A stretch of DNA of 64,000 nt from Chloroflexota bacterium (GCA_013151955.1 JAADHH010000041.1:8969-72968); one strand, 5' to 3'; positions 1 to 59,550 are shown, numbered from the stretch's first letter. The notes: generated from the sequence alone by a model not told the origin. Made by a program: numbers and translations.

Positions 1-2530
1 CCACTTCCGGTGCCGGCGTCTCCTCCGGCGGGATCGGCTCTTTGGCCAGGGCGATCTCCAGGGCTTGCTCGATGCGTTCGACCAATTCGAAGTGCATGTC
101 ATCACGCACTTCATCGGGCAGGTCATCCAGGTCCTTCTCGTTGCGTTTGGGCAGGATGACAGTGGTCAGCTCTGCGCGATGGGCGGCCAGCATCTTCTGT
201 TTGATGCCGCCCACCGGCAACACCTGGCCACGCAGGGTGATTTCGCCGGTCATGCCCACGTTGGGGCGCACCGGGCGACGGGTGAGGAGAGAGGTGAGGG
301 CCGTCACCATGGTCACACCGGCAGAGGGACCATCTTTGGGGATAGCGCCGGCCGGCACGTGCAAATGGATGTCGGTATTCTCGAAGACATCGTCTGGGAT
401 GTTTTGGCGGCTGGCGCTGGCCCGCACATAGCTTTGGGCGATTTTCGCGGACTCGCGCATCACTTCGCCCAGTTGGCCGGTCAGGGTCAGCCCACCCTTG
501 CCCGGCATCTTCGTTGCCTCGACGAAGAGGATGTCGCCACCGACAGCGGTGACGGCCAGGCCGGTGGCCACCCCCGGACGGGAGGTCCGTTCGGGCACTT
601 CCAGGTAAAACTTTGGTTTGCCCAAGTATTCCAATACAATATCGGCATCTACAATGACGGGCTCTGTCACCGTGCCGGCAGCGATCTTCGTGGCCACCTT
701 GCGGCACACGCTGCCAATTTCCCGTTCCAGGTTGCGGACGCCGGCTTCGCGTGTGAAATCCCGAATGATTGCGCGCAGCCCATCGGGTGTGAATTGGATT
801 TCGTCTTCCCGCAGGGTTGTGGCGCGCATTTGACGGGGAACCAGGTAGCCCTCGGCGATCTTCACCTTCTCGCCCTCGGTGTAGCCGTCCAGTTCTAGAA
901 TCTCCATGCGGTCGCGCAAGGGGGCCGGAATCGGGCTGAGCAGATTGGCGGTGGTGATGAACATGACCTGAGAAAGGTCAAAGTCCACGTCCAGGTAGTG
1001 GTCGCGGAAGGCGTTGTTCTGCTGCGGATCGAGGACTTCGAGCAGGGCGGAGGAGGGGTCGCCCCGCCAATCGGTGCCGATTTTATCCACCTCGTCGAGC
1101 ATAAAGACCGGATTGCGTGTGCCGGCCCGTTTGACTGCCTGGACAATGCGGCCGGGCATTGCGCCGATGTAGGTGCGGCGGTGGCCGCGAATTTCCGCTT
1201 CGTCCCGCATACCACCCAGCGACATGCGCGTAAACTTGCGGCCCATGGCCCGGGCAATCGAACGACCCAGTGAGGTTTTGCCTGTACCCGGCGGCCCCAC
1301 GAAACACAAGATTGCCCCTTCGGCGATGGGGTCTTGCAAAGCCAGGGGGAGGTCTTCCTGCGGCTGCTCCTCCACAGGTTCTGGGGCGACAGCGGAATCT
1401 TCGGTGACCTCTTGCCCATTGCCCGGCTCGATTTCTTCCTCCGGTTCTTCCGCGCGTTCGAGGCGCAGCTTACGAACGGCCAGGTATTCGATGATTCGTT
1501 CTTTGATTTCTTCCAGGTCGTAGTGGTCCTCGTCGAGAACTTTTTGGGCGTGGGGAATATCCAGATTATCGTCCGTGCTGACCTGCCAGGGAAGGTCCGT
1601 AAGCCAGTCCAGGTAGGTTTTGATCACGGAGTATTCTGCGGCCTGGGGGGGCATCTTCTCCATGCGTCCCAACTCACGTAGCGCTTCTTTTTTTGCTTCC
1701 GCGGTCATGCCGGCGGCATCAATCTTTTCGCGGTATTCTTGCGTGACCTGTGCGCCCTCGTCGCCTTCGCCCAATTCTTTCTGGATCGCTTTGAGTTGTT
1801 CGCGCAAAAAGTATTCCCGCTGCATTTTTTCCATTTCGGACTGCGCTTCGGTCTGAATCTTGCGTCCCAGTTCCAGCACTTCGAGCTCTTTGTTCAAGAT
1901 GGTCGTGAGCTTGCGCAACTTGGCACCGATATAGTCTGCCTCCAGAATTTCCTGCGCATCGGGGATGTCCATGCGGATGCTGGTGGCGATGAGGTAGGCA
2001 AGATGGCGCGGGTCATCGGCGTTCATGGCCGCCATCATCAGTTCGTCGGGCAGGTGGGGCACCAGTGCGATGAGCCTCCGGAAAAGGTCGGTCAGGTTTC
2101 GGACCAGCGCTTCGACCTCTACGCTTTCTTCGACGATGTCTGGACGCAGGTGCAGTGATGCCCGGAGGTAGGGTGTTTCGGAGATCCATTGTTCGATTGC
2201 GAACCGTTCCATGCCCTGAATAATGAGGCGCACAGAACCATCGGGGGTCTTGAGCAAACGATGAATCAGCGCGGCGGTGCCGATTTGATACACGTCACTG
2301 GGGCCGGGTTGTTCCACTGTGGGGTCTTTCATAGCCACCAGGCCGATGATGCGGTCGCCAATGACTGCGTCATCTACCAGCCGGATCGATCGGGCCTGTT
2401 CCGCACTGAGTGGCAACACGGTTAACGGAAAAACGACGGTGTTGCGTAGGGGAAGGATGGGCAATTCATGTGGAATGACCATCCCATCAGGATCGGATTG
2501 TGTTAGGAATGGTTGATTGTCTTGGGCCAT
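1..2530 (-). CDS. lon: ATP-dependent Lon protease (C-terminus runs off the left edge of the window)
   Basis: Absent from the supplied ORF track because it is edge-truncated. Reverse-strand translation from ATG 2530-2528 gives [43 protein letters not shown] (Lon N-terminal pattern) and stays open to position 2. Walker [10 protein letters not shown] is encoded near 1268-1300. The left end reads [29 protein letters not shown]...[21 protein letters not shown], the Lon protease domain with the catalytic Ser context PKDGPSAG. Confidence 0.9.
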
Positions 2531-2550
2531 GATGGTATTCTCCCTTTGCC

Positions 2551-3006
2551 TTATAAAACGACTGTAGTAACCGGCACATGTTTTGTCGGGCGATTTTTCC
2601 TTGGCAAAGTAATTGTCAAGAATCCGCCGGCATATTGGGCTTGGATGTTCTCGGAGTCGATGGCCCAAGGAATGTGTACCTGACTAATAAAATCGCCATA
2701 ACAGATTTCCATTTGCTGGTAGACACGATTTGTGGTTTGTTCCGGCGCGTGCCTCGTGCCATTGATCGTAAGTACATCATCCGCAAACATGACCGAAAAA
2801 TCTTGCCCGCGCATACCGGAAACCTCAACGACGACGACAATGGCTTCATCAGATTCAAAAACGTCTGTGGGGGGTTTCCAGGCACGTTGGTGCGAGTAGT
2901 GCATGTTCGAGACCCAACGGCTTCCAATCGCCATCTGTTCGACGAATTGGTTCACTTCCGCTTGTACGCTCACGATTTCTCGAGAACCTCTTTCACGATG
3001 CGTCAT
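2551..3006 (-). CDS. Hsp20/alpha-crystallin family small heat-shock protein
   Basis: 151-aa track ORF with an alpha-crystallin-domain pattern ([22 protein letters not shown]...[12 protein letters not shown]...[12 protein letters not shown]). Lies next to lon. Confidence 0.85.
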
Positions 3007-3042
3007 GTTTCTGCTCCTGTCCAGGCTGGTCTGCTACGAAAA

Positions 3043-3140
3043 TAACGTGTCGAGTGTCAGGTGTCACGTAATGCGTTATGCGTGTTGCGCGCCACTCGCT
3101 CATTGACAATTGAAAATTGACATTTGATCATTGATCATTG
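3043..3140. repeat. Run of about 14 phased heptanucleotide units between the GGDEF gene and hsp20
   Basis: Read directly from the sequence: AACGTGT CGAGTGT CAGGTGT CACGTAA TGCGTTA TGCGTGT TGCGCGC CACTCGC, then CATTGAC AATTGAA AATTGAC ATTTGAT CATTGAT CATTG. The 5' part resembles the family-B repeat (..cacgttattttc..) in reverse orientation. Confidence 0.7.
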
Positions 3141-3193
3141 CACTGCCCTGGTGGTGGCGCGTAACGGCGCTCAGTGTCACGATGCCAAGGCTT

Positions 3194-4714
3194 CTAATAC
3201 TCGGTTACCACGCGATTGCGTCCGTTTGTCTTGGCCTGGTAGAGGGCAGAATCGACTTTGGCGATGATCGCTTCGCTATCGTCTGTGCCGCAATCCGGCC
3301 AGGCCGTCACGCCTATGCTCACGGTGACGCGCGCATCGCCGGCCGTTGTGTGCACAACCGTATCGGCGATGCGGGTACGCACCCGCTCCGCAACCAGTGA
3401 GGCTTGAGCCGACTCTGTCTCGGGGAGAAGAACCATGAACTCCTCGCCTCCGTAACGTCCTATTTCATCTGGCTCGCGCAACTCTTCTATACACTGGGAC
3501 ACGATGGCCTGGAGCACTTGATCGCCAACCTGGTGGCCGAAGGTATCGTTCACGCGTTTGAAATGATCAATGTCCAGCATCATCAGTCCGAAGGGCCTCC
3601 CGTAGCGACTGCTGCGCAACATCTCCTGGTCAAGGAGGTGCAAGAAGTGGCTGCGGTTGTATATGCCGGTCAGTCCATCGGTAATGGCCATCTGCCGGAT
3701 CTTGTCATACAACCAGGCATTTTCCATGACCACGGCCGCTTGAGAGACCAGTTGTTGCGCGGTGCGCTCGTCTTCGGGACCAATGAGCAGTCTGTGGTCA
3801 CCGGCGATGACGAATACGCCTTTCGCTGCGCCCCCTCTCAAAATGGGTATGTGATAGACCGTCTCCAACTGGTTGCGCATGGGGGCGGGGCTGTCGTCGT
3901 GTTGAGAAGGTGCCACGTATCGCCGAATCTGCTGGCCCTGCCCATCAAAAGGGAGCGAGGCTTCTTGCAGGGCCTTTTCTTCCAGCCTGGCGATATAGGT
4001 TGGACTTACCGGCCGGATCGGAACGATGTGCAATGCCGTGTCCTGTTCTATGGTGTGTACCAGCGCAACGGCATCAATCTCGAACATCTGGGCAATCTTT
4101 TTCACGGCAGCGCGCACAGTGTCGTGGTAGCTTACCATGGGAGAGGCCAACTGCGTGATCTCATTCATGACGGTGACTTCGTAGAGTCGCCGGTCCAACA
4201 GGTTGTTCACGCGCTCCAATATACTGAAGGGGGTGGATGATTGAGATACGGCCCCTTCTGGTTGAGTCGGACGGACTTTATGGTGTTTCGCGAGCAATTC
4301 CTGGACAAGGGCAAGCAATTCATCCGTATCGCCCCCCTTGGTAAGGTATCCATCGGCACCGGTGCTCAACCCCCAGTAGCGGTCGGTGCGTTGCGATTTG
4401 GACGTAAGCATGATCACAGGAATGTCTGTCGTTGCCGGATCGCTTTTCAAGAGACGGCACACTTGATAGCCATTGATTTGGGGCATCATGATATCGAGTA
4501 TGATAAGATCAGGGGCTTGTTCATAGGCGGCTTGAATTGCTTGGAAGCCATCCAGAACGGTACTTGTTTTATACCCCGCACCCTCCAGAATTGCCCCAGT
4601 CATTCGCAAAACCAGCCGGCTGTCATCAGCGATCAAGATGTGCTTCTTCTCGCGATCCGCCGGCATTTCACTCCCGACTTCTTGTTGGCTCATGTGCCAA
4701 GAACCTCCAGGCAT
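3194..4714 (-). CDS. Response-regulator receiver + GAF-like + GGDEF diguanylate cyclase (RxxD I-site present)
   Basis: REC motif KKHILIADD...DLIILDIMMP. GGDEF domain with REPDEIGRYGGEEF (RxxD five residues before GGEEF). The stop of cheA (4715-4717) directly abuts ATG 4714. An alternative start at ATG 4693 has GGAGG about 10 nt upstream. Confidence 0.85.
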   Translation of the reverse strand: MPGGSWHMSQQEVGSEMPADREKKHILIADDSRLVLRMTGAILEGAGYKTSTVLDGFQAIQAAYEQAPDLIILDIMMPQINGYQVCRLLKSDPATTDIPVIMLTSKSQRTDRYWGLSTGADGYLTKGGDTDELLALVQELLAKHHKVRPTQPEGAVSQSSTPFSILERVNNLLDRRLYEVTVMNEITQLASPMVSYHDTVRAAVKKIAQMFEIDAVALVHTIEQDTALHIVPIRPVSPTYIARLEEKALQEASLPFDGQGQQIRRYVAPSQHDDSPAPMRNQLETVYHIPILRGGAAKGVFVIAGDHRLLIGPEDERTAQQLVSQAAVVMENAWLYDKIRQMAITDGLTGIYNRSHFLHLLDQEMLRSSRYGRPFGLMMLDIDHFKRVNDTFGHQVGDQVLQAIVSQCIEELREPDEIGRYGGEEFMVLLPETESAQASLVAERVRTRIADTVVHTTAGDARVTVSIGVTAWPDCGTDDSEAIIAKVDSALYQAKTNGRNRVVTEY

Positions 4715-6508
4715 TCACGATGCTTGTGGTCGCCAAGTCTGAATGAGTTTCGCTAGATGCGCTGTGTCCAAGATGATTACGATGCGCCCGTCGCCCATTA
4801 TGGTCGCGCCGGCAGTCTTTGGTGCGTTGGCCAAAAAAGGGCCCAAAGACTTGGATATTACTTCCTGTTCGTCCAGCAAGTGGTCTACAGCCAGGGCCGA
4901 CAAGCCGGTGTGTCTCAGAATGACGACCGGAATTGCATTCCCGTTTGGCGTCCAGGCAGATTTGTTTTCCAAAAGCTCATAGAGAGGAGCCAACGGAACT
5001 ATTTTGTCCCGGTATCGTAGAGCGAGACGGCCATCGATTCGTTGGATGGCTTCGGCGCGCACTACGCCGGTGGAAACCACAGATAGCGTGGGCAGCGCCC
5101 ACTGGTATCCTCCACATTCCACAAACAGGGCGTGGACGGTGGAAAGGGACAGGGGGAACGTGAGTACAAACCGGGTACCCTTTCCCAGGTCACTGGAGAC
5201 CAAAAACGTGCCCCGCAGTGCTTCCACCTGTTGTCGGGCGGCACTCATCCCCACGCCCCGTCCAGATGTGTCCGTGAGTTGCTTGCTGGTGCTCAGTCCA
5301 TCGTGAAAGATGAGCTCTATGGCCTGGTCGTCGTCCATCTGCTCCGCTTCGGCGGTCGAGATGATGCCCTTCTCCACAGCCCGCGATTTGATGCGCGATG
5401 GGTCGATGCCTCTGCCATCATCCTCGACCGTGATCTGCACGCGGTCCCCCCCCAGTGTGGCAGAAATGTGGATGTGGCCGGAAGGTGGCTTGCCCCGGGT
5501 TATTCGTTCATCCACCGGCTCGATGCCATGGTCTACGGCATTGCGCAACAGGTGGATTAGGGGGGAGGCCAATCCTTCGATGATTTCTCTATCGAGGGCG
5601 GTTTCGCCTCCTTCGATAGTCAGGCGGACATCTTTGCCCTGCTGTCGCGCCAGATCGCGAGCTGCCCGGGGCAAAACCGAGAGGACCGTAGAAACCGGCA
5701 AAAGGCGCATGTAGAGAACTTGTTCTTTCAACTGGTCTGTCAAGTCATCGGTGACATCCAGGTATTGCTCGTAGGTGAGCTCCAATTCGCTGACATACCG
5801 GTAGAGGTCGCGAAGCTGGTTCGTGGCCCACACGCTGCGCTCTGAATCTTGTTTTTCTGTGGTGCGGTCATTGCCATTTTGTCCCATGGTCTCGCGACCG
5901 AGCTTGCGCAACCGGGCGGCAAGATCACCCAGTTCCCTAAGGTATCGAAGCGACTGGAGCTTTGTCATGGTCAACTCAGAACTGATTGAGACCAGGCGAT
6001 CGATTTGTCCTACGCTGACGCGGAGTGTTTCTATGGTTGTGGGGCGTGCCGCAGATTGTATGTCGGGAACAGGTGTTTCTGCGGGCTCGGCCTGTACTTC
6101 GATTGTTTTCCCTTCTGCCGCAGCAACCAGTGCTTCGCACAGCTCGTCCACATCCAGTGAAGCCGTCTCCTGCTTTTCAGCAGCACGTGTGTGAATCTCT
6201 ATGGCATCTATGCCACGGAGCAGAAGGTCGTTGAGTGCCGGTGTGATGGGCTTCTTTTCTCTTTCCAGCGTTTCGAAGACATCCTCCATGCTGTGGGCCA
6301 CACGCGCTATGGTTTCCAGCCCCATAATTTTCGCGGCTCCCTTTATGCTGTGGGCAGCGCGAAAGACATCGTGCAGGCTCTCGATGTTATCCGGGTTCCT
6401 CTCCAACTCCAGCAGGCCGGAAGTGATCGCTTGAATGCGCTCTTCAATTTCCTGGACGAATTCGCCCATAAAGGCGGAAACGTCAAACCCATCTGCGAGA
6501 TTTGTCAT
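4715..6508 (-). CDS. cheA: Chemotaxis histidine kinase CheA
   Basis: HPt motif HSIKGAAKIMGL. N-box HLLRNAVDHGIE, G1 DDGRGID, G2 GRGVGMSA. C-terminal CheW-like region. ATGA start/stop overlap with cheW at 6505-6508. Confidence 0.9.
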   Translation of the reverse strand: MTNLADGFDVSAFMGEFVQEIEERIQAITSGLLELERNPDNIESLHDVFRAAHSIKGAAKIMGLETIARVAHSMEDVFETLEREKKPITPALNDLLLRGIDAIEIHTRAAEKQETASLDVDELCEALVAAAEGKTIEVQAEPAETPVPDIQSAARPTTIETLRVSVGQIDRLVSISSELTMTKLQSLRYLRELGDLAARLRKLGRETMGQNGNDRTTEKQDSERSVWATNQLRDLYRYVSELELTYEQYLDVTDDLTDQLKEQVLYMRLLPVSTVLSVLPRAARDLARQQGKDVRLTIEGGETALDREIIEGLASPLIHLLRNAVDHGIEPVDERITRGKPPSGHIHISATLGGDRVQITVEDDGRGIDPSRIKSRAVEKGIISTAEAEQMDDDQAIELIFHDGLSTSKQLTDTSGRGVGMSAARQQVEALRGTFLVSSDLGKGTRFVLTFPLSLSTVHALFVECGGYQWALPTLSVVSTGVVRAEAIQRIDGRLALRYRDKIVPLAPLYELLENKSAWTPNGNAIPVVILRHTGLSALAVDHLLDEQEVISKSLGPFLANAPKTAGATIMGDGRIVIILDTAHLAKLIQTWRPQAS

Positions 6509-7005
6509 GGTTTTGTGTCGTCCATAAGAATGGTCGATAGTCGGTCTGCATCCAAGACACCGACAAGTTGGCCATCCACATCAATGAAGCCACGGAACAG
6601 TTGCGGCCCGGCCGGAGTGGATAAAGGGGGCGCTATCTCCGTGTCGGAAACCTCACGCACATCACCGGTATGTGATGTCAGCAAGCCACAAGCGTGCCCG
6701 CCCACCGAGACCATGAGGATGCAGCAATCGGTTTCGTGCGAGTCCCGCGCTATTTGCCCGTAGATTTGGGCAAGGTCCACGACTGCGGTGATGTTGCCGC
6801 GCAAGTTCACGACCCCGGCAATGTACGGCGGCATATCCGGCACCGGCGTGATCGGCAGCATGGGTTCTACACTCAATACGTGCTCGATTTCCAGGGCCAA
6901 CTGCATCTCTCCTACGTCGAAAACTACGTAGGGTGTGCACTCTGCGGTTGTTTTCGCCTGACGAGACGAATGTGCATTTGAATTGGATTGGGCCATATTC
7001 CCCAT
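6505..7005 (-). CDS. cheW: Chemotaxis coupling protein CheW
   Basis: 166-aa ORF with a CheW-like pattern (YVVFDVGEMQLALEIEHVLSV...VVNLRGNITAVVDL...GFIDVDGQLVGVLD). Translationally coupled to cheA. Confidence 0.85.
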   Translation of the reverse strand: MGNMAQSNSNAHSSRQAKTTAECTPYVVFDVGEMQLALEIEHVLSVEPMLPITPVPDMPPYIAGVVNLRGNITAVVDLAQIYGQIARDSHETDCCILMVSVGGHACGLLTSHTGDVREVSDTEIAPPLSTPAGPQLFRGFIDVDGQLVGVLDADRLSTILMDDTKP

Positions 7006-7025
7006 CTTCGTTTCAAGAAGTTCAA

Positions 7026-7156
7026 GTATCTTCGCAAAAAGTAGGGGCGTACCCTTGCGGTCGCCCTACGGGGCAGGGTCGCCCTACGGGGCAGGCGCAA
7101 GGCCGGCAAGGGCAGGCGCAAGGCCGTGCCCCTACCCCGAATTATTGAGAAGATAC
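7026..7156. mobile_element. MITE family A, copy 1 (131 bp)
   Basis: Terminal inverted repeat gtatcttcGcaa ... ttgagaagatac. Internal GC-rich tandem duplications (gtcgccctacggggcagg x2, gcaggcgcaaggccg x2). Flanked by near-identical 8-mers aagttcaa (7018-7025) and cagttcaa (7157-7164). Confidence 0.65.
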
Positions 7157-7164
7157 CAGTTCAA

Positions 7165-7323
7165 ATTCTAAAGCAGTCACCATGAGCGATTGCGCGCCAC
7201 CAACAATGAAAATCGTGTGGAGCGTCGAGCGTGAAGGCGTGAAACGTATTGCGTATTGCGTCTTACGCATCACGCATCACGTTTACGTTTTACCTGACAC
7301 CTGACACGTTATTTTCAAAGCAG
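7165..7323. repeat. Family-B composite intergenic repeat (B1 hairpin module + B2 heptad-doublet module)
   Basis: B1: aaagcagtcaccatgagcgattgcgcgccaccaacaatgaaaat, also at 46977-47019. B2: cgtattg cgtattg cgtctta cgcatca cgcatca cgttta cgtttta cctgaca cctgaca cgttattttcaaagcag, also at 32138-32217, 46913-46983, and in reverse at 24307-24396. Its 3' end overlaps the stop codon of the selenoprotein gene. Confidence 0.8.
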
Positions 7324-7551
7324 CGCACGAAGTGCTGTCTCCACCTCCGGATATGCCGGATGCCTCCCGGTCTCTTTCTTGGAATAGACCAACGTATCTT
7401 TCACAGAAATCTCGAAAACGCCTCCCGTGGAGGGGATAAGCGTGAGCGATGATATTTCATGCTCAAAGTCGGCCAAGATATTTTCCGCCATACTGACGGC
7501 TCGTGGACGATAGTTTCAGACGGCGCAGTATTCAATCGTAATCTTTGGCAT
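7315..7551 (-). CDS. SelW/Rdx-family selenoprotein (CxxU), in-frame TGA at 7516-7518 read as selenocysteine
   Basis: Not in the ORF track because it is split by TGA. Hand translation of the minus strand gives MPKITIEYCAV[TGA]NYRPRAVSMAENILADFEHEISSLTLIPSTGGVFEISVKDTLVYSKKETGRHPAYPEVETALRALL, ending at stop 7315-7317. It matches the SelW/Rdx pattern (I/V-x-YC-x-x-C/U-x-Y ... TG-x-FEV/I ... SKK). GGAG sits 6 nt before the ATG. A small hairpin CCGUC-AGUAU-GGCGG (7499-7485) lies 16 nt after the UGA. Confidence 0.75.
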
Positions 7552-7612
7552 GTTGTGCTCCCCCGTAGGAATTGCGCAATACAGTTCTATTGTTACTGCT
7601 CAGGCAAGGCCC

Positions 7613-7741
7613 GTGCCGGATTGAAATCGGCACTGGGTGCCCCACCAAGCCGCTGAAAGCGGCTGAATCTCCACCGGTAGTAGGGGCGCAAAGCTGTGCG
7701 CCCCTACTACCGTGTGGCCAGTGACGGCTTCAGCCCGTCAC
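7613..7741. repeat. Array of four consecutive perfect or near-perfect hairpins
   Basis: Four hairpins: gtgccgg/tcggcac (7613-7633), agccgc-tgaaa-gcggct (7648-7664), a 15-bp perfect stem ggtagtaggggcgca-aagctg-tgcgcccctactacc (7676-7711), and gtgacgg-cttcagc-ccgtcac (7721-7741). None is followed by a T-run. The third shares the gtaggggcg...cgcccctac core with MITE family A. Confidence 0.7.
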
Positions 7742-7835
7742 GGCAAGGCGGCCTGAGCTGTAACGTTCTATTTGAAGTATAGCACAATGCCCAAGGCTCG
7801 TCAAGGTTATCATCGCAAACGGATAAACAACCTCC

Positions 7836-7864
7836 TTGACAGTTCTTCAATTTTATGATATTAT
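7836..7864 (+). promoter_or_regulatory. Sigma70-type promoter TTGACA-N17-TATTAT upstream of the ATPase/NACHT pair
   Basis: TTGACA at 7836-7841, a 17-nt spacer, and TATTAT at 7859-7864. It sits in a locally AT-rich stretch (about 7780-7940) that contrasts with the GC-rich surroundings. Confidence 0.55.
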
Positions 7865-8041
7865 CTTTTTACCAAATAATTTGGATATGTATTTTCACAG
7901 ACGGACCCAGACAAAGCCTTTCTTGATCTGAGAAAATCTGTGTCTCTCCAACTCGCCGGATTACGATGCAGCTTCGTCGGACGGCAACAAAGAATTGATG
8001 GTGTCAGGCAACGCAACAAAATGAGCGAGGAGGTACCCTGG

Positions 8042-9361
8042 ATGGCCCGACCGCCATTTCCTCATTCAGCACACACCTTTGAAGAGGCCTACGCAAATAC
8101 CGACTACCGGCTACCACTTCGCGATGAACAGTTGGATTATTTCTACGTTGCGCGTGCGTCAGGGACCTCACGATTGGAGGTGTTGAAGCAAGCACTGTCC
8201 TTGGGCACCGCAAAAGGCCTGGACACCAAGTTCCTGGTTACGGGGCACCTGGGCTGTGGCAAGTCGACGGAGATCAACCGCCTGGTCAAAGACATCGCCA
8301 CACAAGAAGACTTGCGCGAGAACCTGTTTGTGGTGTCCTACTCGGCCAGCGACCTGCTGGACTTGCAAGACGTGGACTATACCGATATTGCCTTCTCCAT
8401 TGTGGCCGGAGTCTACGACCGGCTTCACGAACTGGACATCACCTTCTCCAGCGACACCATCGAGAAGATAACCGAATGGATCAGCATGGAGGTAGAGACG
8501 TTCACCTCCACCACCCTCGGTGCGGAAATCGAGTTGGCCGGTGGACAGGTGGGGATTGGCCGCTTACTCAACATGATGAATCTCATTGGGATCAATATCC
8601 GTGGCGGCGGCACGCGTGGCAAGGAAGTGCGCCGGCTGGTAAAGAAGCGCGCGCCCGAATTACGAGATTTGGTCAACAACCTGCTGGAGGAGTTGCGCGA
8701 GCTTACGGGAATGTCCGTTTTGTTGGTCATCGATGATCTCGATAAATTGCGCAAGGATGATGCCGTGCGCGTGTTTCGCGAGGATGGCCCCTTCCTGACT
8801 CTGCTCAACTGTATGGCCATCTACACCGCGCCCGTTTCTATGATGTACCAATTGGGTGAATCGCCCAGCTTCGAGAAGTACCAACGCTACGCTGTGCCCA
8901 TGTTCAAGGTGGCATCACACAACGGGTCCGCTGAATCGGGCGACCTGGACCGGCTTGTCGAAATGGTCTATCGCCGGGTCTCCCCCGAACTCTTCGTCCC
9001 CGGCATCATTGAACAAATGGCGGTCACGTGCGGTGGTGTCGTTCGCCACCTCATAAAAATGGTACAGGATAGTTGCCTGTATTGTCAGACCTTCCAACAT
9101 CCCGTGATCGATGCCGAGGCCTATTCCTGGGTGCTCGAACGCCTGAAGCAAGACTACAGCAGATGGTTGGGCCGGGCCGACTACGAAATACTGAAACGCA
9201 TACACCAGACGAAATCGTGTCACGACGCAGAAGAGGCCTGGGAATATCTGCAATCGCTCTGTGTCCTCGAATATAGCAACGGGGGGTATTGGTACGACCT
9301 GCATCCCGTTGTACAGATGCTACTTGGAGAGCGAACGCCCAATGCGGAGGAGAGCGCATGA
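8042..9361 (+). CDS. P-loop NTPase (AAA+/ORC-Cdc6- or STAND-like), partner of the downstream NACHT protein
   Basis: The track ORF is 7940..9361 (GTG). I prefer ATG 8042 because GAGGAGG (8027-8033) lies 8 nt upstream. Walker A is VTGHLGCGKST (about 8243-8269). Walker B is VLLVIDDLDKL (about 8719-8748). The stop TGA 9359-9361 overlaps ATG 9358 of the next gene (ATGA). Confidence 0.7.
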   Translation: MARPPFPHSAHTFEEAYANTDYRLPLRDEQLDYFYVARASGTSRLEVLKQALSLGTAKGLDTKFLVTGHLGCGKSTEINRLVKDIATQEDLRENLFVVSYSASDLLDLQDVDYTDIAFSIVAGVYDRLHELDITFSSDTIEKITEWISMEVETFTSTTLGAEIELAGGQVGIGRLLNMMNLIGINIRGGGTRGKEVRRLVKKRAPELRDLVNNLLEELRELTGMSVLLVIDDLDKLRKDDAVRVFREDGPFLTLLNCMAIYTAPVSMMYQLGESPSFEKYQRYAVPMFKVASHNGSAESGDLDRLVEMVYRRVSPELFVPGIIEQMAVTCGGVVRHLIKMVQDSCLYCQTFQHPVIDAEAYSWVLERLKQDYSRWLGRADYEILKRIHQTKSCHDAEEAWEYLQSLCVLEYSNGGYWYDLHPVVQMLLGERTPNAEESA

Positions 9362-12300
9362 CAAAAGATCAGATCGCCGGCCACCTCGCGCAAGCCACAG
9401 ACGAGGAGTTGAATGCTCGTTTTCCGGAACAGATCAACCTGCTCGTCAACATGATCCGTCTGAGCAGGCTGGGGGGCATCGCCACCGTTGAATGTGACGA
9501 CATCGCCCTCCGAAAAAGACTCTTCCGATTCTTCCACAACAAGCTCCGCGAATCCAATATTTATCTCTATCCGGTGGAGGTAAACGAACATGACCTAAAC
9601 CTGGTGCGCTTCCTTCGGGATTTGACGGAACGCTCCGGCTTCAAAGACTTGGAACTCATCGGGCGCTACGAAAACATTGCCCTGTTCATCTATGGCCTGG
9701 AAAAATTCGACACAGAACAGCAAGAACAATTCCTCGCTTCGCTCAACCTGTTCCGCGATACCACCACGATCATCAAGCAGCCGATCATCATTTGGGCCAC
9801 CGGCAAGTTCGTGACGCGCATGGCCCGCGAATCACCAGATTTTTGGAGCTGGAAGGGTATGCTCTTCCAATTCGCCGGCAATGGCCACGAGGCGCAAACA
9901 GAATCGCAATTGCCTCCGCTCCAGCGCTACCTGCACGGCCTGATGAACGATCCCGATTTTGCCATTTGGCGCGATCTATACGTGCCGCTGCGCGGGTTTC
10001 CCCTGCGTTCCCCGCCGGCCTGGAGTGCCGGAGAGCGCGCAACCATCCGCGAACGCCCGGTGAAGGATGATCATCTTTCCCAGAACCTGGCCATGGGGAG
10101 TGCGAAGCCCCCGGCGAGAGGCGAAGCAGATAATTTGCTGAACCTGTTAGCACGTCCGCACAATGTTGTGGTGCTCGGTTCACCCGGCGCAGGAAAAACC
10201 ACGCTGCTTCGCTATCTGGCACAAGCACAGGCCCGCCGTGCCTGGAAAGGCCTGCGCCAGGGAGCGACCCCGGAGCCTATCCCGGTCTTCCTGCGACTCA
10301 ACCTGATGCGCAAAGGACGCACCTTTCACCAACTGATTCACGATGCGTTCCTCTTCTACAACTTTGACTCCATCGAGGAAACTGCCCAATTGAGCCGCCT
10401 GCTTGAAGGCAACCCGCAAGCCAGCGTCGCGGGATTGTCGTCCGACCAGCGCTTTCTGTTCCTCTGCGACGGACTCGGTGAGGTTCCCCGCGAACAACGC
10501 GGTGAACTGCGCCAGGCCATGCAACGCTTGCTCAAGCGGCACTATCTGGTGGTGACATGTCGCACCGAAAAATATCTGCCCATGGACGGCATGGATGTCT
10601 TGCTGATCGAGCCCCTGTCGGACGATGACATCCGCCGTTATGCCATGCGCTATCTGGGCGACAAACGAGGCAAACAACTGGCCCGCGAAGTGTTGGAGGA
10701 CGCGGCCCTGACCGAGCTTGCCCGCAGCCCGCTGGTGCTATACATGCTCACACGCATTGCGGACGACTCCTCCGAGGAGGAAACCCTGCCCATGAATCGG
10801 GGCATCCTCTTCCAGCGTTTCACGGACAATCTCTTGCGTCGTACAGAAGCGGAATGGTGGCGCTTGTTCGGACGCACGCGCAGTCGTGTGAACCTCGACG
10901 TCAGCAGACAAGCCCTGGCCGAACTGGCCTATAAAATGCAACACGACCGCGTGACCCGTATCCACAGCGAACGTTGCTATTGGATCGTCCGCGAGGCTAC
11001 CTATGTCACGCCGACAAATGCTTCGGCAAAGGGTATCTTCGAGGGGTTGATCCATTCCGGGATCATCCGCCTGTCGGGGGACCGTATCCAGGTGGAGTTT
11101 ATGCACCAGGCGGTTCGCGAGTACTTCGCGGCGCTGAAGATCCAGGAAAGCAACGAAAGTCTGGCGTCCTATTTGTCCGACGAGGCGGGGTTGAGGATGT
11201 GGGGCGGCACGGCTACCCTCCTCTTCGGAATTGTCGACAATCATGCCGCTTTGTACCGCGACATTGTTGGGGATGGCACCAATTACCACCGGCTGTGGCT
11301 GGCAGCGCGCGGGCTGGCCACGCTTCCCGATGAATCGGGGGCGCTGGCCGAGATCGGGCGTGCGGTGGCAGACAACCCACACGATTCCGCCGTCTTCGAC
11401 CTGTGTCGCGGGTTGGCGCACGAAGGGCAGGGTGAATTTCGTGAGGCCATCGCCATGTTTCGCCGGGCCATTGAACTGGACCCCCAGCTTGCCTATGCCT
11501 ACTACGATTTGGGTTGCGTCTTTCGCCAACTGGGGTACGTAGACTATGCCATCGCCGCTCAAAAAGAGGCCATTCGACGTCACCCAGAATTTGTAGATGC
11601 CTACAACCACCTGGGGATTACGTTCTTCGAGCAGGAGGATTACCGGCGAGCGCTACAAGTGTTCGAGGCGGCTGTAGAACTGGAACCGGACAACGCACAC
11701 CATTACTTTAATATCGGTCTGGTCCTTCAGGTTTTGCAACAATACAAGCCGGCGGCACAAGCTTTTGTGCGTGCCCTGCAGATCAAAGAGAATTATGCAG
11801 AGGCCGATCGCCAGTTGCAACTGCTTCGCAAGGCCCAAGAGACTCCCAATCTGTCACTGATCGACCAGATCGACCTGTTTCACGACCTGCCGTTGGCCCA
11901 ACGCCTGGCTTTGGCCCAAAACCTGCAAGCAGAAAAAGCCCCCGCCGGCACGATGATCATCGAGCAGGAGCAGCCCGCTCGAAGAATGTACATCATTGCC
12001 GAGGGCGAGGTGGAAGTCTGCTCTGCCGATGCCCAAAACCGGCCACTCAACATCCATCGCCTACAGCGAGGCGACCACTTCAGTGAAGCGGCGCTGCTGG
12101 AAGACGTCCTGCACTCGACCACCGCCACGGCAGTGACCAACGTGAAACTCCTGAGCCTGAGCAGGGAACACTTCGACCAGACAAAATCTCGCTTTCCAGC
12201 CCTCGCCCAAAAACTCGTGCAGACGCGCAACGCCCGTTTGCAACGAGACATTGAACATGCCCTGGAGGAAAGTGCGCGCCGCTACATGGAGCGTGACGGT

Positions 12301-12891
12301 TCCGCGGGAGCGAAAGGTGAAAAAGCGGTAGAACGGGAAATGACGGTGCTGGCCGCCTGCTTGAGCAATACGCACACGCTTACGGCCACCTTGGGGCCTA
12401 CGGGGATGCTGCAATTCCTCCAGGAATTCTATCTGCAAATGATACGTGCCGTCGGTGAAAAGGGTTTGGTCCAAAAATCAGTTGTCGGCGAGAAGGTCGT
12501 CGTCCTGTTCGATGAGCCGCTGGATGCGGTACGCACAGCTCTGGACATGCGTGCCCATTTCGACCGGTTGGTAAAAGCCTGGAAGAGAAAGCAACCCGAT
12601 TTCACGTCGGTTGGTTTGGGCATTGGGCTTTCCACCGGCAAAATCGCGCTGAAAGAAGACGCCGCAGCGCAGATCATGGCTGGGACGCCGGCACTGTTTG
12701 CCGACCGCTTGGCCGAACGGAGCGCCCCCGAGGGAGAAATCCATGTCGATGAGAAGACAAAGATGCTGCTGGGAGACCGTTTCGAGAATCTGATTCCGCT
12801 CGCGAAACCGGTCGTACTGGAAGGACTGGACGAGGAACCGGCACGCCTGTACCGTGTGCCTTGCGTCACCGGGCTGGAGAATGAAGCGTGA
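9358..12891 (+). CDS. Multidomain STAND protein: N-terminal domain of unknown function, NACHT NTPase, TPR repeats, cNMP-binding-like domain, class III cyclase-homology-like domain
   Basis: The track ORF 9289..12891 has an in-frame ATG at 9358 forming an ATGA overlap with the upstream stop.
- NACHT: VVVLGSPGAGKTTLLRYLA (10177-10203 encodes GSPGAGKTT), Walker B FLFLCDGLGEV (about 10453-10482), LVVTCRTEKY, IEPLSDDDIRRYAMRYL.
- About four TPRs (AIAMFRRAIELDPQLAYAYYDLG...VELEPDNAHHYFNIG; about 11440-11830).
- cNMP-binding fold (about 11870-12200; MYIIAEGEVEV...GDHFSEAALLED).
- C-terminal cyclase-homology-like region (about 12340-12860; MTVLAACLSNTHTL...VGLGIGLSTGKIAL). Confidence 0.8.
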   Translation: MTKDQIAGHLAQATDEELNARFPEQINLLVNMIRLSRLGGIATVECDDIALRKRLFRFFHNKLRESNIYLYPVEVNEHDLNLVRFLRDLTERSGFKDLELIGRYENIALFIYGLEKFDTEQQEQFLASLNLFRDTTTIIKQPIIIWATGKFVTRMARESPDFWSWKGMLFQFAGNGHEAQTESQLPPLQRYLHGLMNDPDFAIWRDLYVPLRGFPLRSPPAWSAGERATIRERPVKDDHLSQNLAMGSAKPPARGEADNLLNLLARPHNVVVLGSPGAGKTTLLRYLAQAQARRAWKGLRQGATPEPIPVFLRLNLMRKGRTFHQLIHDAFLFYNFDSIEETAQLSRLLEGNPQASVAGLSSDQRFLFLCDGLGEVPREQRGELRQAMQRLLKRHYLVVTCRTEKYLPMDGMDVLLIEPLSDDDIRRYAMRYLGDKRGKQLAREVLEDAALTELARSPLVLYMLTRIADDSSEEETLPMNRGILFQRFTDNLLRRTEAEWWRLFGRTRSRVNLDVSRQALAELAYKMQHDRVTRIHSERCYWIVREATYVTPTNASAKGIFEGLIHSGIIRLSGDRIQVEFMHQAVREYFAALKIQESNESLASYLSDEAGLRMWGGTATLLFGIVDNHAALYRDIVGDGTNYHRLWLAARGLATLPDESGALAEIGRAVADNPHDSAVFDLCRGLAHEGQGEFREAIAMFRRAIELDPQLAYAYYDLGCVFRQLGYVDYAIAAQKEAIRRHPEFVDAYNHLGITFFEQEDYRRALQVFEAAVELEPDNAHHYFNIGLVLQVLQQYKPAAQAFVRALQIKENYAEADRQLQLLRKAQETPNLSLIDQIDLFHDLPLAQRLALAQNLQAEKAPAGTMIIEQEQPARRMYIIAEGEVEVCSADAQNRPLNIHRLQRGDHFSEAALLEDVLHSTTATAVTNVKLLSLSREHFDQTKSRFPALAQKLVQTRNARLQRDIEHALEESARRYMERDGSAGAKGEKAVEREMTVLAACLSNTHTLTATLGPTGMLQFLQEFYLQMIRAVGEKGLVQKSVVGEKVVVLFDEPLDAVRTALDMRAHFDRLVKAWKRKQPDFTSVGLGIGLSTGKIALKEDAAAQIMAGTPALFADRLAERSAPEGEIHVDEKTKMLLGDRFENLIPLAKPVVLEGLDEEPARLYRVPCVTGLENEA

Positions 12892-13026
12892 AATGTAGAG
12901 ACCACGGGAGCGAGCTGAAGGCGACGGAATCTCCATTCCGTTGCGGCGGCCAGACGTAGCCCTGGAAACCTCTCTTGAGTTGCGCGTTGTGTTGGAGCGT
13001 TGTCCCCTCTATGGTCTCGCGGTCGC

Positions 13027-14025
13027 CTATCGTTTATCGTCCATTTTCTGAATGAACGCATCGAGCGAAGTGGTGTCGAGGGCCACATCGAGCAAGCTCT
13101 CCAGGTGTGCAGCATCCAGCGTGCGCAGTTTCACCTCCACCCCGGAAGATACCCGCCCGAAGCGGTGCTCCAGCACCCGCAACAGTTGCCGCAGCGCGCC
13201 CTGTCTCAGGCCTTGCTCCAGACCCTGCTCCAAGCCTTGTTCCAGGCCCTGTTCCAAGCCTTGCTCCATCCACTTCTCCGCAATCGTGGCCATCAGTTCC
13301 CCTCCTTCCGGGACTCTCGCCTCCACAACTCTCCGCAGTTCTTCTTCCCGAAGCTTATCCGTCCCTACCGACAGATACCGCAACAACGTCTCCAGGTATT
13401 CCAGCCCCGTCTCCTGGCCTAACAGTTCTGCTCCTAACCCCAAAATATGCCCCAGATGCGTTTCTACATCATCCCGCAGAATGTACTTCAGCGTCAGCAA
13501 CCCCACCTGCAAGAGCACCGCTCCCTTGATCTCTTCGTCGCTGTAGGCCGACAGGTCGCACAGACAATACCGGTAGTCGGGCACGTACGCCCTCATCTCT
13601 TCCGGCGCGTCGAACAGGCTCCACAGGTCTAGCCCTACCTTCCATCTCGCTACCCCGTGATACAACACCACCGGCAGGATTGGCAACAGTTGCCCCTGCT
13701 GTCGCAAGTCTTGCTCCCATATCCGCACCACGTAGCGCAACAACTGAAAGGCAACACCCTCATCAGGATAGCTCTTGTGCTCGAACAGCACGTAAACGCG
13801 CGCTTCGCCTCCCTCTTTCCAGGCTACTTTGTAGAGCAGATCCGAAAAGTGTGTCCGCAACTCCGTGTCGACAAAGGTATCTTTGCTCGCTTCCAAGGTG
13901 GACAGGTCGAGCAAGTCTACCACCTCGGGCGGCAAGTAGTAGCGTATGAAGTCGCGGGCCGCCTCCCCGTGGGAGAGCAATTGTTTGAAAAAGTGGTCGT
14001 GGGGTGTGCTGATCCCGGTCATCAT
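13027..14025 (-). CDS. Rpn/YhgA-family recombination-promoting nuclease / putative transposase (PD-(D/E)xK) with DUF4351-like C-terminus
   Basis: N-terminus PHDHFFKQLLSHGEAARDFIRYYLP...FSDLLYKV...VYVLFEHKSYPD is typical of the Rpn/transposase_31 family. The C-terminus has an (EQGL)x5 repeat encoded by 12-nt tandem repeats (about 13198-13265), followed by a LRQLLRVLEHRFG... tail. Confidence 0.8.
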   Translation of the reverse strand: MMTGISTPHDHFFKQLLSHGEAARDFIRYYLPPEVVDLLDLSTLEASKDTFVDTELRTHFSDLLYKVAWKEGGEARVYVLFEHKSYPDEGVAFQLLRYVVRIWEQDLRQQGQLLPILPVVLYHGVARWKVGLDLWSLFDAPEEMRAYVPDYRYCLCDLSAYSDEEIKGAVLLQVGLLTLKYILRDDVETHLGHILGLGAELLGQETGLEYLETLLRYLSVGTDKLREEELRRVVEARVPEGGELMATIAEKWMEQGLEQGLEQGLEQGLEQGLRQGALRQLLRVLEHRFGRVSSGVEVKLRTLDAAHLESLLDVALDTTSLDAFIQKMDDKR

Positions 14026-14075
14026 GAGCCTCAGTCGTTGGTGTGTCAGAATGAAGGGATTTATGCCGATGCGTG

Positions 14076-14207
14076 GTATCTTCTCAAAAAGTAGGGGCGT
14101 ACCCTTGCGGTCGCCCTACGGGGCAGCGGTCGCCCTATGGGGCAGGCGCAAGGCCGGCAAGGGCAGGCGCAAGGCCGTGCCCCTACCCCGAATTATTGAG
14201 AAGATAC
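14076..14207. mobile_element. MITE family A, copy 2 (132 bp)
   Basis: TIR gtatcttctcaa ... ttgagaagatac. Perfect 8-bp direct repeat gatgcgtg immediately on both sides (14068-14075 and 14208-14215). Near-identical to copy 1. Confidence 0.75.
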
Positions 14208-14236
14208 GATGCGTGGTAGTAACCCTCGTAACGCAG

Positions 14237-14536
14237 TCAGAGTTGAAAACGACCGGTAGCTGGGACAACCTTATAATTGAAGTTCTCCACATATTGCAGC
14301 AACTGCTCTTGCAATTGTTCCCATTCCGGGTCTTTCAATATCTTCCGCATCATGTCAATGTTGTTGGTCACGCTGCCAGCGAGAATCTGCGGCCCCTGTC
14401 CGTAGACCGTATACCAGGCCTCCGTAGGTTCAAGGCCCAGCCGTATCAGCGCTGGGGCAAATTCGCTGGTAATGTAATCCAGATAGGTGCTTTCGTGACC
14501 TGCCCGTATGTCCCAAGTCATTAAAAGTTTTACCAT
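14237..14536 (-). CDS. Small conserved-looking hypothetical protein (99 aa)
   Basis: The track ORF is 14237..14596. The internal ATG 14536 is preceded by AGAGG 5 nt upstream. The product MVKLLMTWDIRAGHESTYLDYITSEF... has no motif I can assign. Confidence 0.45.
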   Translation of the reverse strand: MVKLLMTWDIRAGHESTYLDYITSEFAPALIRLGLEPTEAWYTVYGQGPQILAGSVTNNIDMMRKILKDPEWEQLQEQLLQYVENFNYKVVPATGRFQL

Positions 14537-14665
14537 GTCAACCTCTGAACAGACTGTGGTGGAACCCTTCTCATTCAATGAATTGTACCACAACATAGGC
14601 CGGCGAGCAAACGCCTATTCGGCTGGAATGTCGGCGTATGTGGCACAAATCGGGAGGAAAAGCTG

Positions 14666-14738
14666 AGCCACCCGTCGGACTCGAACCGACAACCTAGCGC
14701 TTACGAAGCGCTTGCTCTTCCTATTGAGCTAGGGTGGC
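14666..14738 (-). tRNA. tRNA-Thr (anticodon CGU)
   Basis: Hand-folded cloverleaf: GCCACCC-TA-GCTC-AATAGGAA-GAGC-A-AGCGC-TTCGTAA-GCGCT-AGGTT-GTCGG-TTCGAGT-CCGAC-GGGTGGC-T. 73 nt. CCA is not encoded. Confidence 0.85.
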
Positions 14739-20752: not shown

Positions 20753-20844
20753 GTATCTTCTCAATAATCCGTGGTAGGGGCATAGCCTTGCGCTTGCCCC
20801 GTAGGGCGACCGCAAGGGATCGCCCCTACTTTTTGAGAAGATAC
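20753..20844. mobile_element. MITE family A, copy 3 (92-bp deletion derivative, opposite orientation)
   Basis: TIR gtatcttctcaa ... ttgagaagatac. Perfect 8-bp target-site duplication ttactttg at 20745-20752 and 20845-20852. It lacks the internal tandem duplications of copies 1 and 2. It sits 20 nt upstream of the GTG start of the REC-ParA gene. Confidence 0.8.
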
Positions 20845-59301: not shown

Positions 59302-59400
59302 GTATCTTCTCAATAATTCGGGGTGAGCAGAGTGTCGCGCCCCCCTAACCCCCCAACTTTGGGGGGAATGTGCTCCCCCAGAATTGGGGGCCGGGGGCGT
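59302..59400. repeat. Chimeric repeat: one MITE-A end fused to a family-C palindrome
   Basis: gtatcttctcaataattcgggg (identical to the end of MITE copies 1-3), then cccctaaccccccaactttgggggg...cccccagaattggggg (family C). No matching second TIR is present. Confidence 0.65.
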
Positions 59401-59550
59401 CCCCCAGGTTATTTCACGTTGCCCATTATACCGCAGCGAAAGGGCCGTGTCAAAGCCTGTATCTTCAACTAACTGCTGCGTATTTGCAAGGATTCCAGAT
59501 TGCCAGTATAATTTGATAGGGTATGCCACGAAGAGCGTACGCATTACGCG

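Follow-up and report, generated by a model that had tools for sequence, protein, structure and literature searches.

A widespread gene pair encoding an ORC/Cdc6-like ATPase and a predicted AAA+-like domain without a P-loop, and its NACHT version with degenerate cyclic-nucleotide domains in a Chloroflexota bacterium

A stretch of 64,000 nucleotides from a Chloroflexota bacterium (GCA_013151955.1, JAADHH010000041.1:8969-72968), hereafter the window, carries on its forward strand two overlapping genes that we call ORF-A and ORF-B (ORF, open reading frame). ORF-A encodes a P-loop ATPase, and ORF-B a large protein of the STAND type (signal transduction ATPases with numerous domains), whose N-terminal domain, Ndom, is the part that recurs together with ORF-A in other genomes. 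The pair and the signals that accompany it are the following, in window coordinates:

7836–7864, + strand: promoter-like site with a sigma-70-like consensus (TTGACA, 17-nucleotide (nt) spacer, TG, TATTAT)
8027–8033, + strand: Shine-Dalgarno-like GAGGAGG, 8 nt 5' of the ORF-A ATG, as read from the sequence
8042–9361, + strand: ORF-A, 439 amino acids (aa), active-looking AAA+/STAND-type ATPase resembling Cdc6 and the subunits of the origin recognition complex (ORC)
9346–9361, + strand: coupling region, with GGAGGAG within the end of ORF-A and then an ATGA overlap
9358–12891, + strand: ORF-B, 1177 aa, multidomain STAND protein (Ndom, NACHT, helical region, tetratricopeptide repeats (TPRs), a fold like those that bind cyclic nucleoside monophosphates (cNMPs), cyclase-homology fold)

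A preliminary description of this DNA had proposed that a consensus promoter in an AT-rich patch drives two genes joined by a stop/start overlap, and both genes were found where it had placed them. The ATG of ORF-B (9358–9360) and the TGA of ORF-A (9359–9361) share the tetranucleotide ATGA (9358–9361), and a Shine-Dalgarno-like GGAGGAG (9346–9352) lies 6 nt 5' of the ORF-B ATG; we regard the two genes as a tightly linked pair that is probably co-translated. Two alternative starts exist for ORF-A (ATG at 8021, GTG at 7940), and the start at 8042 is supported by a database protein from a 'Chloroflexi bacterium' (P0062), which has exactly 439 aa and is 100% identical to ORF-A. The promoter-like site agrees with the consensus at 11 of 12 positions, in addition to the TG extension, and is the best match within 6900–14700. 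It lies inside a trough of GC content (0.30–0.33 at 7800–7950, versus about 0.55–0.60 around it), about 178 nt 5' of the ORF-A start, which implies a leader of about 170 nt. The proposed promoter was thus recovered as a consensus match, its function being putative. An Rfam scan of 6900–8200 for a riboswitch or other leader element returned nothing.

ORF-A contains a Walker A motif, GHLGCGKST, at residues 68–76 and a Walker B motif, LLVIDDLDK, at about residues 227–235. In the alignment of its family, the Walker A consensus GHxGCGKST, the Walker B IDDLDK and several Arg residues are all invariant, and the ATPase looks active. The AlphaFold model, which has a predicted local distance difference test score (pLDDT) of 84 and a predicted template-modelling score (pTM) of 0.84, comprises an AAA+ base, a helical lid and a C-terminal winged-helix-like end. 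When it was compared with known structures using Foldseek, the best match was Cdc6/Orc1 (7tjh_I, E = 5.8e-8; also 2qby_A and 1fnn_A; template-modelling (TM) scores 0.39–0.53), and resemblance to RdrA, TnsC and CED-4 was detected as well. At the level of its predicted fold, ORF-A is an ORC/Cdc6-like P-loop ATPase, in keeping with the class to which it had been assigned at the outset.

Among sequence models, Pfam KAP_NTPase matched ORF-A over part of its length (22.8 bits versus a cut-off of 20, profile positions 22–172 of 293), and there was a weak match to AAA_16; most ORF-A homologs carry no KAP annotation. KAP proteins typically carry a transmembrane insert, and no such insert was evident in ORF-A, where no formal check for it was made. 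The NCBIfam orc1/cdc6 model TIGR02928 gave no match to ORF-A, and in a scan of the pair's proteins the NCBIfam orc1/cdc6 and DnaA-related models all stayed far under their cut-offs. The relatives of ORF-A bear generic labels only in the databases ('P-loop NTPase fold protein', 'AAA family ATPase' and similar).

The first 270 or so residues of ORF-B had initially been described as unassignable. This still holds for family models: residues 1–270 returned nothing usable from Pfam or NCBIfam (one chance match to YtfJ), and neither NCBIfam nor the 2025 copy of Pfam holds a model matching Ndom. It no longer holds for residues 25–175 or so, for which a fold can now be predicted:

9430–9882, + strand: Ndom, ORF-B residues ~25–175, five-stranded alpha/beta domain, predicted to be AAA+-like, without a P-loop

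When 26 homologs are aligned, residues 25–172 prove to be the most conserved stretch of ORF-B, with the motifs GGIATVECDD, FVYGxEK, LNLFRD, QPIVIWAT and APDFWSWKG. There is no P-loop, the Walker A position being occupied by 'VECDD'. The structure model (pLDDT 78.6, pTM 0.70) is a five-stranded alpha/beta domain whose closest structures in the PDB are IstB, ORC2/ORC3/Orc1, DnaC, Rif2, Sir3, the clamp-loader delta subunit and TnsC, with E-values from 5.8e-5 and TM-scores of 0.35–0.5; several of these are nucleotide-dead AAA+ modules. Ndom is accordingly predicted, from its modelled structure, to be a degenerate, nucleotide-dead AAA+-like domain. The possibility that it is a diverged copy of ORF-A or of the NACHT ATPase domain was considered and rejected, hhalign having given no signal.

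The close relatives of the pair belong to the Chloroflexota (Ardenticatenales, Anaerolineae, Caldilineae), and in five of the five homolog loci that were looked up an ORF-A homolog lies directly 5' of the ORF-B homolog. The junctions between the two genes are:

L001, Ardenticatena maritima: 4-nt overlap
L002 and L003: 4-nt overlap
L005: 4-nt overlap
L006: 30-nt gap
L004: 157-nt gap

The same arrangement was found much further afield when the ORF-A alignment was scanned against one genome per GTDB species. This returned at least 433 relatives, of which 80 loci were inspected: the gene following the ORF-A homolog starts with Ndom in 73 of them, overlapping it or beginning a few bases later, and in five of the remaining seven the contig runs out no more than about 200 nt from ORF-A, so that these are not assessable. 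The loci with this arrangement come from Chloroflexota, Cyanobacteria, Myxococcota, Planctomycetes and ANME archaea. Besides Chloroflexota, the bacterial relatives of ORF-A occur in Cyanobacteria (many, including Nostoc, Microcystis and Acaryochloris), Myxococcota, Planctomycetes, Armatimonadetes and Desulfobacteraceae, and the archaeal ones in ANME-2, Methanoperedens and Halobacteria. Searched against 1.84 billion representatives, a profile of Ndom matched 699 clusters at 50% identity, and Ndom is nearly always N-terminal among the matches listed. What follows it is variable. TPRs only are the common form, as in the Nostoc proteins of ~593 aa, and we also found NB-ARC-TPR, NNH1-NACHT, NACHT-HEAT, TPR-HEAT-EAD7-TPR and TPR-GTPase; the NACHT-TPR-cNMP-cyclase version was restricted to Chloroflexota among the loci scanned.

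Since the pair recurs while the part after Ndom varies, the conserved core consists of ORF-A and Ndom, to which particular lineages have added the NACHT, cNMP and cyclase parts. ORF-A plus Ndom is a widespread, unnamed two-gene module. The expectation in the preliminary description that the two genes would be neighbours across genomes is borne out by both sets of loci; its view of ORF-A as a dedicated second ATPase, an unusual addition to an NLR-like (nucleotide-binding leucine-rich-repeat-like) protein, is not, ORF-A being half of the conserved core. Note that the module seems to have undergone paralogous expansion in places: one locus (L088) has two Ndom-TPR genes, at 1226–2788 and 7273–10788, and one Myxococcota metagenome-assembled genome has two ORF-A loci (L032 and L062).

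Downstream of Ndom, ORF-B contains four further assigned parts:

10162–10662, + strand: NACHT NTPase core, ORF-B residues 269–435, from Pfam
11395–11823, + strand: TPR array, ORF-B residues ~680–822, three to four repeats, from Pfam
11869–12252, + strand: cNMP-binding fold, ORF-B residues ~838–965, with a degenerate phosphate-binding cassette
12328–12888, + strand: class III cyclase-homology domain, ORF-B residues ~991–1177, without catalytic residues

The NACHT module scored 39.4 bits with Pfam (cut-off 26.7) and has a Walker A GSPGAGKTT and a Walker B FLFLCDGLGE. G277, K280, T281, D371, G372, E375 and R402 are invariant in the 26 homologs, and because the Walker motifs and R402 never vary the NACHT ATPase looks active. 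The TPRs (three by TPR_1, four by TPR_2) also scored above the Pfam cut-off, and many of their columns are invariant. A NACHT module followed by about four TPRs is what had been read from the sequence in the first place.

Within the Chloroflexota, the homologs of ORF-B fall into three classes by length:

Short class, ~955–985 aa: stops after the cNMP domain, without a cyclase domain
Middle class, ~1145–1194 aa: architecture as in ORF-B
Long class, ~1305–1334 aa: additional cNMP domain between Ndom and NACHT

We then compared the C-terminal folds with the residues on which their function would depend. The cNMP-binding fold is clear (Pfam cNMP_binding, residues 860–941, 64.6 bits versus a threshold of 27.5). 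As for the cyclase fold, the single protein scored 18.0 bits with Pfam Guanylate_cyc, under the cut-off of 21.9, and a single-sequence search of the ORF-B C-terminus against PDB cyclases gave E ~0.3. A profile of 13 family C-termini (A2), by contrast, matched Pseudomonas aeruginosa CyaB (3r5g) with E = 7.7e-31 and many other class III cyclases. Because this profile strongly matches solved class III cyclases, the cyclase-homology fold is real at the family level, and both C-terminal folds named in the preliminary description are upheld.

The key residues tell a different story for ORF-B. In most homologs the cNMP cassette reads FGE(I/L)ALL...PRTA(T/S)V, as is canonical; in ORF-B and its 94%-identical homolog P0001 it reads FSEAALL...LHSTTA (S909, H919, S920 and T921 in ORF-B), so that the Gly and the Arg of the phosphate-binding cassette are both lost. 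In canonical cNMP-binding domains, it is this Arg that binds the cyclic phosphate. In the cyclase-homology domain, the two metal-binding aspartates, present as D/D in 18 of 21 cyclase-bearing homologs, are C1001 (Asp1) and E1045 (Asp2) in ORF-B, as in P0001. The transition-state Asn position is L1113, and the Arg, R1117, is kept. According to the residue table, ORF-B and P0001 are the only members in which pocket and cyclase site are both degenerate. Since these residues are lost, cyclic-nucleotide synthesis or canonical binding by ORF-B is very unlikely, and the idea of a working cyclic-nucleotide module, entertained at first, has to be given up for this protein. Even in the rest of the family cyclase activity may be weak or absent, because the middle class has I, V, L or M throughout at the transition-state Asn position and the long class, which keeps the Asn, has Lys or His at the Arg position. 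Where CyaB has its substrate-specifying Lys, the aligned residue is Gln in middle-class proteins and, for the most part, Arg in long-class ones.

These data bear directly on one alternative, namely that ORF-B is a NACHT-regulated adenylate or guanylate cyclase with feedback, making cyclic AMP or cyclic GMP that the adjacent cNMP domain senses. The family's C-terminal profile is clearly that of a class III cyclase, most homologs keep both metal-binding aspartates together with the canonical FGE...RTA pocket, and the long class carries a second cNMP domain. In addition, a GAF-GAF-HD gene overlaps the stop codon of the ORF-B homolog at one long-class locus, and a further protein encoded in the window has two cNMP domains. 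We nevertheless consider a cyclase very improbable: beyond the substitutions in ORF-B itself and its Pfam cyclase score under the cut-off, the closest other relatives (P0002–P0004, 64–65% identity) lack the cyclase domain altogether, the whole class of ~1150–1190 aa is without the catalytic Asn, and ORF-A and Ndom would be left unexplained. It follows for annotation that the label 'adenylate cyclase', which UniRef gives to the Ardenticatena homolog, is not to be transferred to ORF-B.

Two observations belong beside this question. At locus L004, the first base of the GAF-GAF-HD (HD_5) gene (5727–7523) coincides with the final base of the ORF-B homolog (called at 1804–5727), whose partner it might encode in the form of a cyclic-nucleotide phosphodiesterase. 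As a general feature, such a downstream GAF-HD gene was rejected, being found at L004 only and not conserved at the other long-class loci checked. In the window, a 764-codon open frame (stop-to-stop) at 59512–61803 on the + strand encodes two cNMP-binding domains (128.8 bits) and a bPH_2 domain (bacterial PH domain), one of the cNMP domains scoring 104.7 bits with the cNMP profile of the ORF-B family. As this product has two cNMP domains, the organism probably uses cyclic nucleotides.

To see how selection acts on the parts of the pair, we compared the window with locus L009, which is 94% identical, and computed the ratio of nonsynonymous to synonymous substitution rates (dN/dS). It was 0.035 for ORF-A, 0.044 for Ndom, 0.056 for the NACHT and helical region, 0.036 for the TPRs, 0.089 for the cNMP domain and 0.12 for the cyclase-homology domain. 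The last two values indicate that the cNMP and cyclase-homology domains are not decaying and are retained under purifying selection; they are most likely now structural or regulatory pseudo-domains.

We propose that the two proteins of the locus act together as a nucleotide switch of the STAND/AAA+ kind. By analogy with the inactive subunits of ORC, with those of clamp loaders and with predicted active/inactive STAND pairs of conflict systems, Ndom would dock on ORF-A, and the resulting AAA+ assembly would contain both active and inactive modules. The NACHT and the TPR array would sense a ligand and drive oligomerisation, as in other STAND proteins, and oligomerisation would in turn alter the nucleotide state or the assembly of the bound ORF-A, which may give the output, possibly via its winged-helix end. 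In ancestral proteins whose key residues were intact, the binding and perhaps the synthesis of a cyclic nucleotide would have modulated the switch, a loop lost in the ORF-B lineage; the Chloroflexota extension probably did couple the switch to a cyclic nucleotide, because most members keep the cNMP pocket and both aspartates. What the switch puts out is a guess, since no effector domain can be identified, and the most plausible guess is a role in conflict or stress response in filamentous or aggregating prokaryotes. Our confidence in the anatomy of the locus, taken by itself, is much higher than our confidence in this overall picture, to which we give about even chances.

Several points weigh against the proposed switch. 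Profile-profile comparison shows no sequence homology of Ndom to ORF-A or to NACHT, and the AAA+ assignment of Ndom comes from predicted structure only, with moderate TM-scores (0.4–0.5). No toxin or enzyme effector domain is recognisable in the pair. Furthermore, the middle class is without the catalytic Asn even where both aspartates are present, and the class of ~1310 aa carries Lys or His where the Arg would be.

The distribution of the module invites a broader proposal, which we put forward tentatively and with less than even confidence: that ORF-A plus Ndom is an undescribed, widespread 'split STAND' module, a new signalling or conflict class in prokaryotes of the multicellular type, to which the Chloroflexota added a cNMP loop that was later partly dismantled. 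In such a module, a dead AAA+ adaptor at the N-terminus of TPR, NB-ARC, NACHT, HEAT or EAD7 scaffolds would recruit and control an ORC/Cdc6-like ATPase.

The surroundings of the pair were examined in the window and at the homolog loci. In the window, the genes for a response regulator with GGDEF, a CheA-like kinase and CheW lie upstream on the opposite strand, and a gene of the Rpn/YhgA type, three transfer RNA (tRNA) genes and metabolic genes lie downstream. The upstream genes form a chemotaxis-like cluster (3194–7005, − strand) that is transcribed away from the pair and whose stop and start codons overlap; it has no link to the ORF-A/ORF-B pair in the homolog loci:

3194–4714, − strand: response regulator with GGDEF
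4715–6508, − strand: CheA-like kinase
6505–7005, − strand: CheW

Between this cluster and ORF-A lies a gene of 78 codons (7315–7551, − strand) resembling Rdx/SelW, with an in-frame TGA at the CxxU redox position (the product begins MPKITIEYCAV and continues after the stop with NYRPRA...). With Cys in place of the stop, the product scores 80.6 bits with Pfam Rdx, and the gene, which plain lists of ORFs miss, probably encodes a selenoprotein. A promoter-like site (7804–7776) lies on the same strand. Between this gene and ORF-A there is also a near-perfect, loopless palindrome of 19+19 nt (7675–7712; CGGTAGTAGGGGCGCAAAG/CTGTGCGCCCCTACTACCG). The palindrome shares the motif GTAGGGGCG with the ends of an element of about 131 nt that resembles a miniature inverted-repeat transposable element (MITE), with terminal inverted repeats GTATCTTC..AAAAAGTAGGGG / CCCCGAATTATTGAGAAGATAC. 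Two copies of this element, 98–99% identical and in direct orientation (7026–7156 and 14076–14207), flank a block made up of the SelW-like gene, ORF-A, ORF-B and the Rpn/YhgA gene. Additional copies are found near 20753–20844 and 59302–59323, the latter just upstream of the 59512–61803 frame, and because more copies exist elsewhere in the window we do not claim a composite transposon or other composite mobile unit. The Rpn/YhgA-type gene (13027–14025, − strand; Transposase_31, 201.7 bits, plus DUF4351) contains a repeat at 13198–13279 in which five tandem 12-nt units encode an (EQGL)n stretch.

At the homolog loci, the neighbours include glycosyltransferases, FHA proteins, haem biosynthesis genes, ClpB, rubrerythrins and peptidases. 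They differ at every locus, and only ORF-A and ORF-B are common to all. Neighbours were judged from Pfam calls, and not by a systematic defence scan, at L001, L002, L004, L005, L006 and the window; most of those called belong to housekeeping-type Pfam families, the exceptions being, in L002, a CHAT/FGE-sulfatase gene two genes 3' of the pair and, in the window, the Rpn/YhgA gene. The accessory island suggested in the preliminary description is therefore only partly recovered, in that the MITE-like repeats, the Rpn/YhgA gene and the tRNAs are indeed present and the homolog contexts do not support an island.

An initiator-like ATPase amid such genes could also be a housekeeping regulator, in which the Orc1/Cdc6-like winged-helix protein ORF-A would bind DNA and control transcription or replication in response to ORF-B. 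The predicted fold of ORF-A, including its C-terminal winged-helix-like element, is indeed like that of DNA-binding initiators, both genes are under strong purifying selection and the pair is chromosomal and sits amid housekeeping genes. Such a regulator would nonetheless be hard to reconcile with the absence of conserved synteny with target genes and with a phyletic spread that is patchy and not that of a core gene, and the NCBIfam initiator models, as mentioned above, do not recognise the protein. We regard this explanation as improbable, and a core, syntenic housekeeping role, which had been named among the outcomes that would count against the initial proposal, was not what the homolog loci revealed.

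The remaining alternative is an NLR-type antiphage or conflict system, in which the TPR/NACHT part would sense an invader protein and the resulting oligomer would activate ORF-A or an unlinked effector, leading to abortive infection. The STAND plus TPR architecture with its intact NACHT is of the appropriate kind, no two loci have the two-gene cassette in the same genomic context, one Ndom protein has EAD7, an effector-associated domain of such systems, and the P-loop region of ORF-A shows a weak PifA-like similarity with the PADLOC models. The module is also patchily distributed across distant phyla and enriched in filamentous or aggregating lineages, a distribution that, with such parts, Kaur et al. 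tie to conflict systems of multicellular prokaryotes (PMC7159879, PMC8195603). On the other hand, PADLOC models gave no system-level match to the pair. They gave partial single-domain matches only, of the cNMP part to Pycsar effectors and of the P-loop to mad8, and NCBIfam EruA reached 41 bits versus a cut-off of 1000. As regards Pycsar, the PycC models scored 17.8–19.6 bits over partial regions, and no TIR or transmembrane effector is present; more generally, nuclease, TIR, protease and pore-forming effectors are all absent from the pair. The neighbours are mostly of the housekeeping type (haem synthesis, ClpB, rubrerythrins, glycosyltransferases), tblastn searches found no plasmid or phage copies, and the sensor is conserved and not diversifying, as seen from the dN/dS of 0.036 for the TPRs and their many invariant columns. 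A defence role in a defence island, as first imagined, is thus not borne out, and we consider an antiphage function rather unlikely.

If the proposed complex of ORF-A and Ndom is real, a single explanation would cover a large set of gene pairs, comprising 433 loci or more in reference genomes taken at species level and 699 clusters of Ndom, for which databases now offer no more than the names 'P-loop NTPase' and 'TPR protein'. STAND/NLR-like proteins would then also have a new wiring, with a separate ORC-like ATPase, reached through a pseudo-ATPase adaptor, as the readout in place of an enzymatic effector fused to the sensor. Within the Chloroflexota branch, cyclic-nucleotide modules are intact, degenerate or deleted, a natural series in which to study the role of pseudo-cyclase and pseudo-cNMP domains in NLR-like proteins.

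How does the pair compare with known systems? Like the bacterial NACHT (bNACHT) proteins, ORF-B has a NACHT core, canonical Walker A and B motifs and a C-terminal repeat sensor. Unlike them, it has a strictly conserved partner ATPase, a dead AAA+-like domain and not an enzymatic effector at its N-terminus, degenerate cyclic-nucleotide domains, and neither a defence context nor a PADLOC match. Bacterial NACHT genes are reported to be mostly solitary, some have effector domains at the extreme C-terminus, and cNMP cyclases and cNMP-binding domains figure among the NACHT fusions surveyed (Kibby et al., bioRxiv 10.1101/2022.07.19.500537; later in Cell). Because such fusions are catalogued there, the domain combination of ORF-B is not new in itself, and its C-terminal cyclic-nucleotide module is not the unrecognised architecture it was taken for. 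A literature search, which was not exhaustive, found no specific description of the exact architecture or of the pair.

Closest in concept is the nSTAND2 operon, in which the gene for an active STAND with a winged helix-turn-helix precedes that for an eroded STAND, which has TPRs and a variable effector, the two proteins being predicted to form a hetero-multimer (PMC8195603). The architectural analogy extends to iSTAND and iSTAND2 (Kaur, Iyer, Burroughs and Aravind 2021, PMC8195603; Kaur et al. 2020, PMC7159879): here, too, an active NTPase gene is followed by a gene that opens with an eroded NTPase module and continues with TPRs and variable C-terminal modules. Membership of nSTAND2 itself was rejected, as hhalign against the published alignment gave a probability of 0.2% for Ndom and 1.3% for ORF-A. 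Moreover, the nSTAND2 partners carry effectors of the GT4 or HEPN type, and Pseudomonas (Gammaproteobacteria) is the source of the example rows seen, whereas Ndom proteins carry TPR, NB-ARC or NACHT and occur in Cyanobacteria, Chloroflexota and archaea. We therefore regard the nSTAND2 operon as the closest conceptual precedent, an analogue of the pair and not a family to which it belongs.

The predicted folds of ORF-A and Ndom are like those of Orc1/Cdc6, ORC, DnaC/IstB and clamp loaders. ORC and clamp loaders mix active and nucleotide-dead AAA+ subunits in one complex. The pair differs from these initiator-clade proteins in that the TM-scores are only 0.35–0.5 at 10–16% sequence identity, no family hidden Markov model matches and there is no replication context. 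A last comparison is with the mycobacterial Rv0386 type, which consists of a cyclase, an NB-ARC-like ATPase, TPRs and a LuxR helix-turn-helix, and of which Rv0386 is catalytically active. ORF-B likewise unites a class III cyclase domain, a STAND ATPase and TPRs in one polypeptide; its cyclase domain is C-terminal and not N-terminal, its ATPase belongs to another STAND clade and its catalytic residues are lost. To our knowledge, proteins of the Rv0386 type have neither a cNMP-binding domain nor a partner ATPase. STAND/NLR-like signalling and the pairing of active with inactive NTPases are both of kinds already known, and the module described here combines them.

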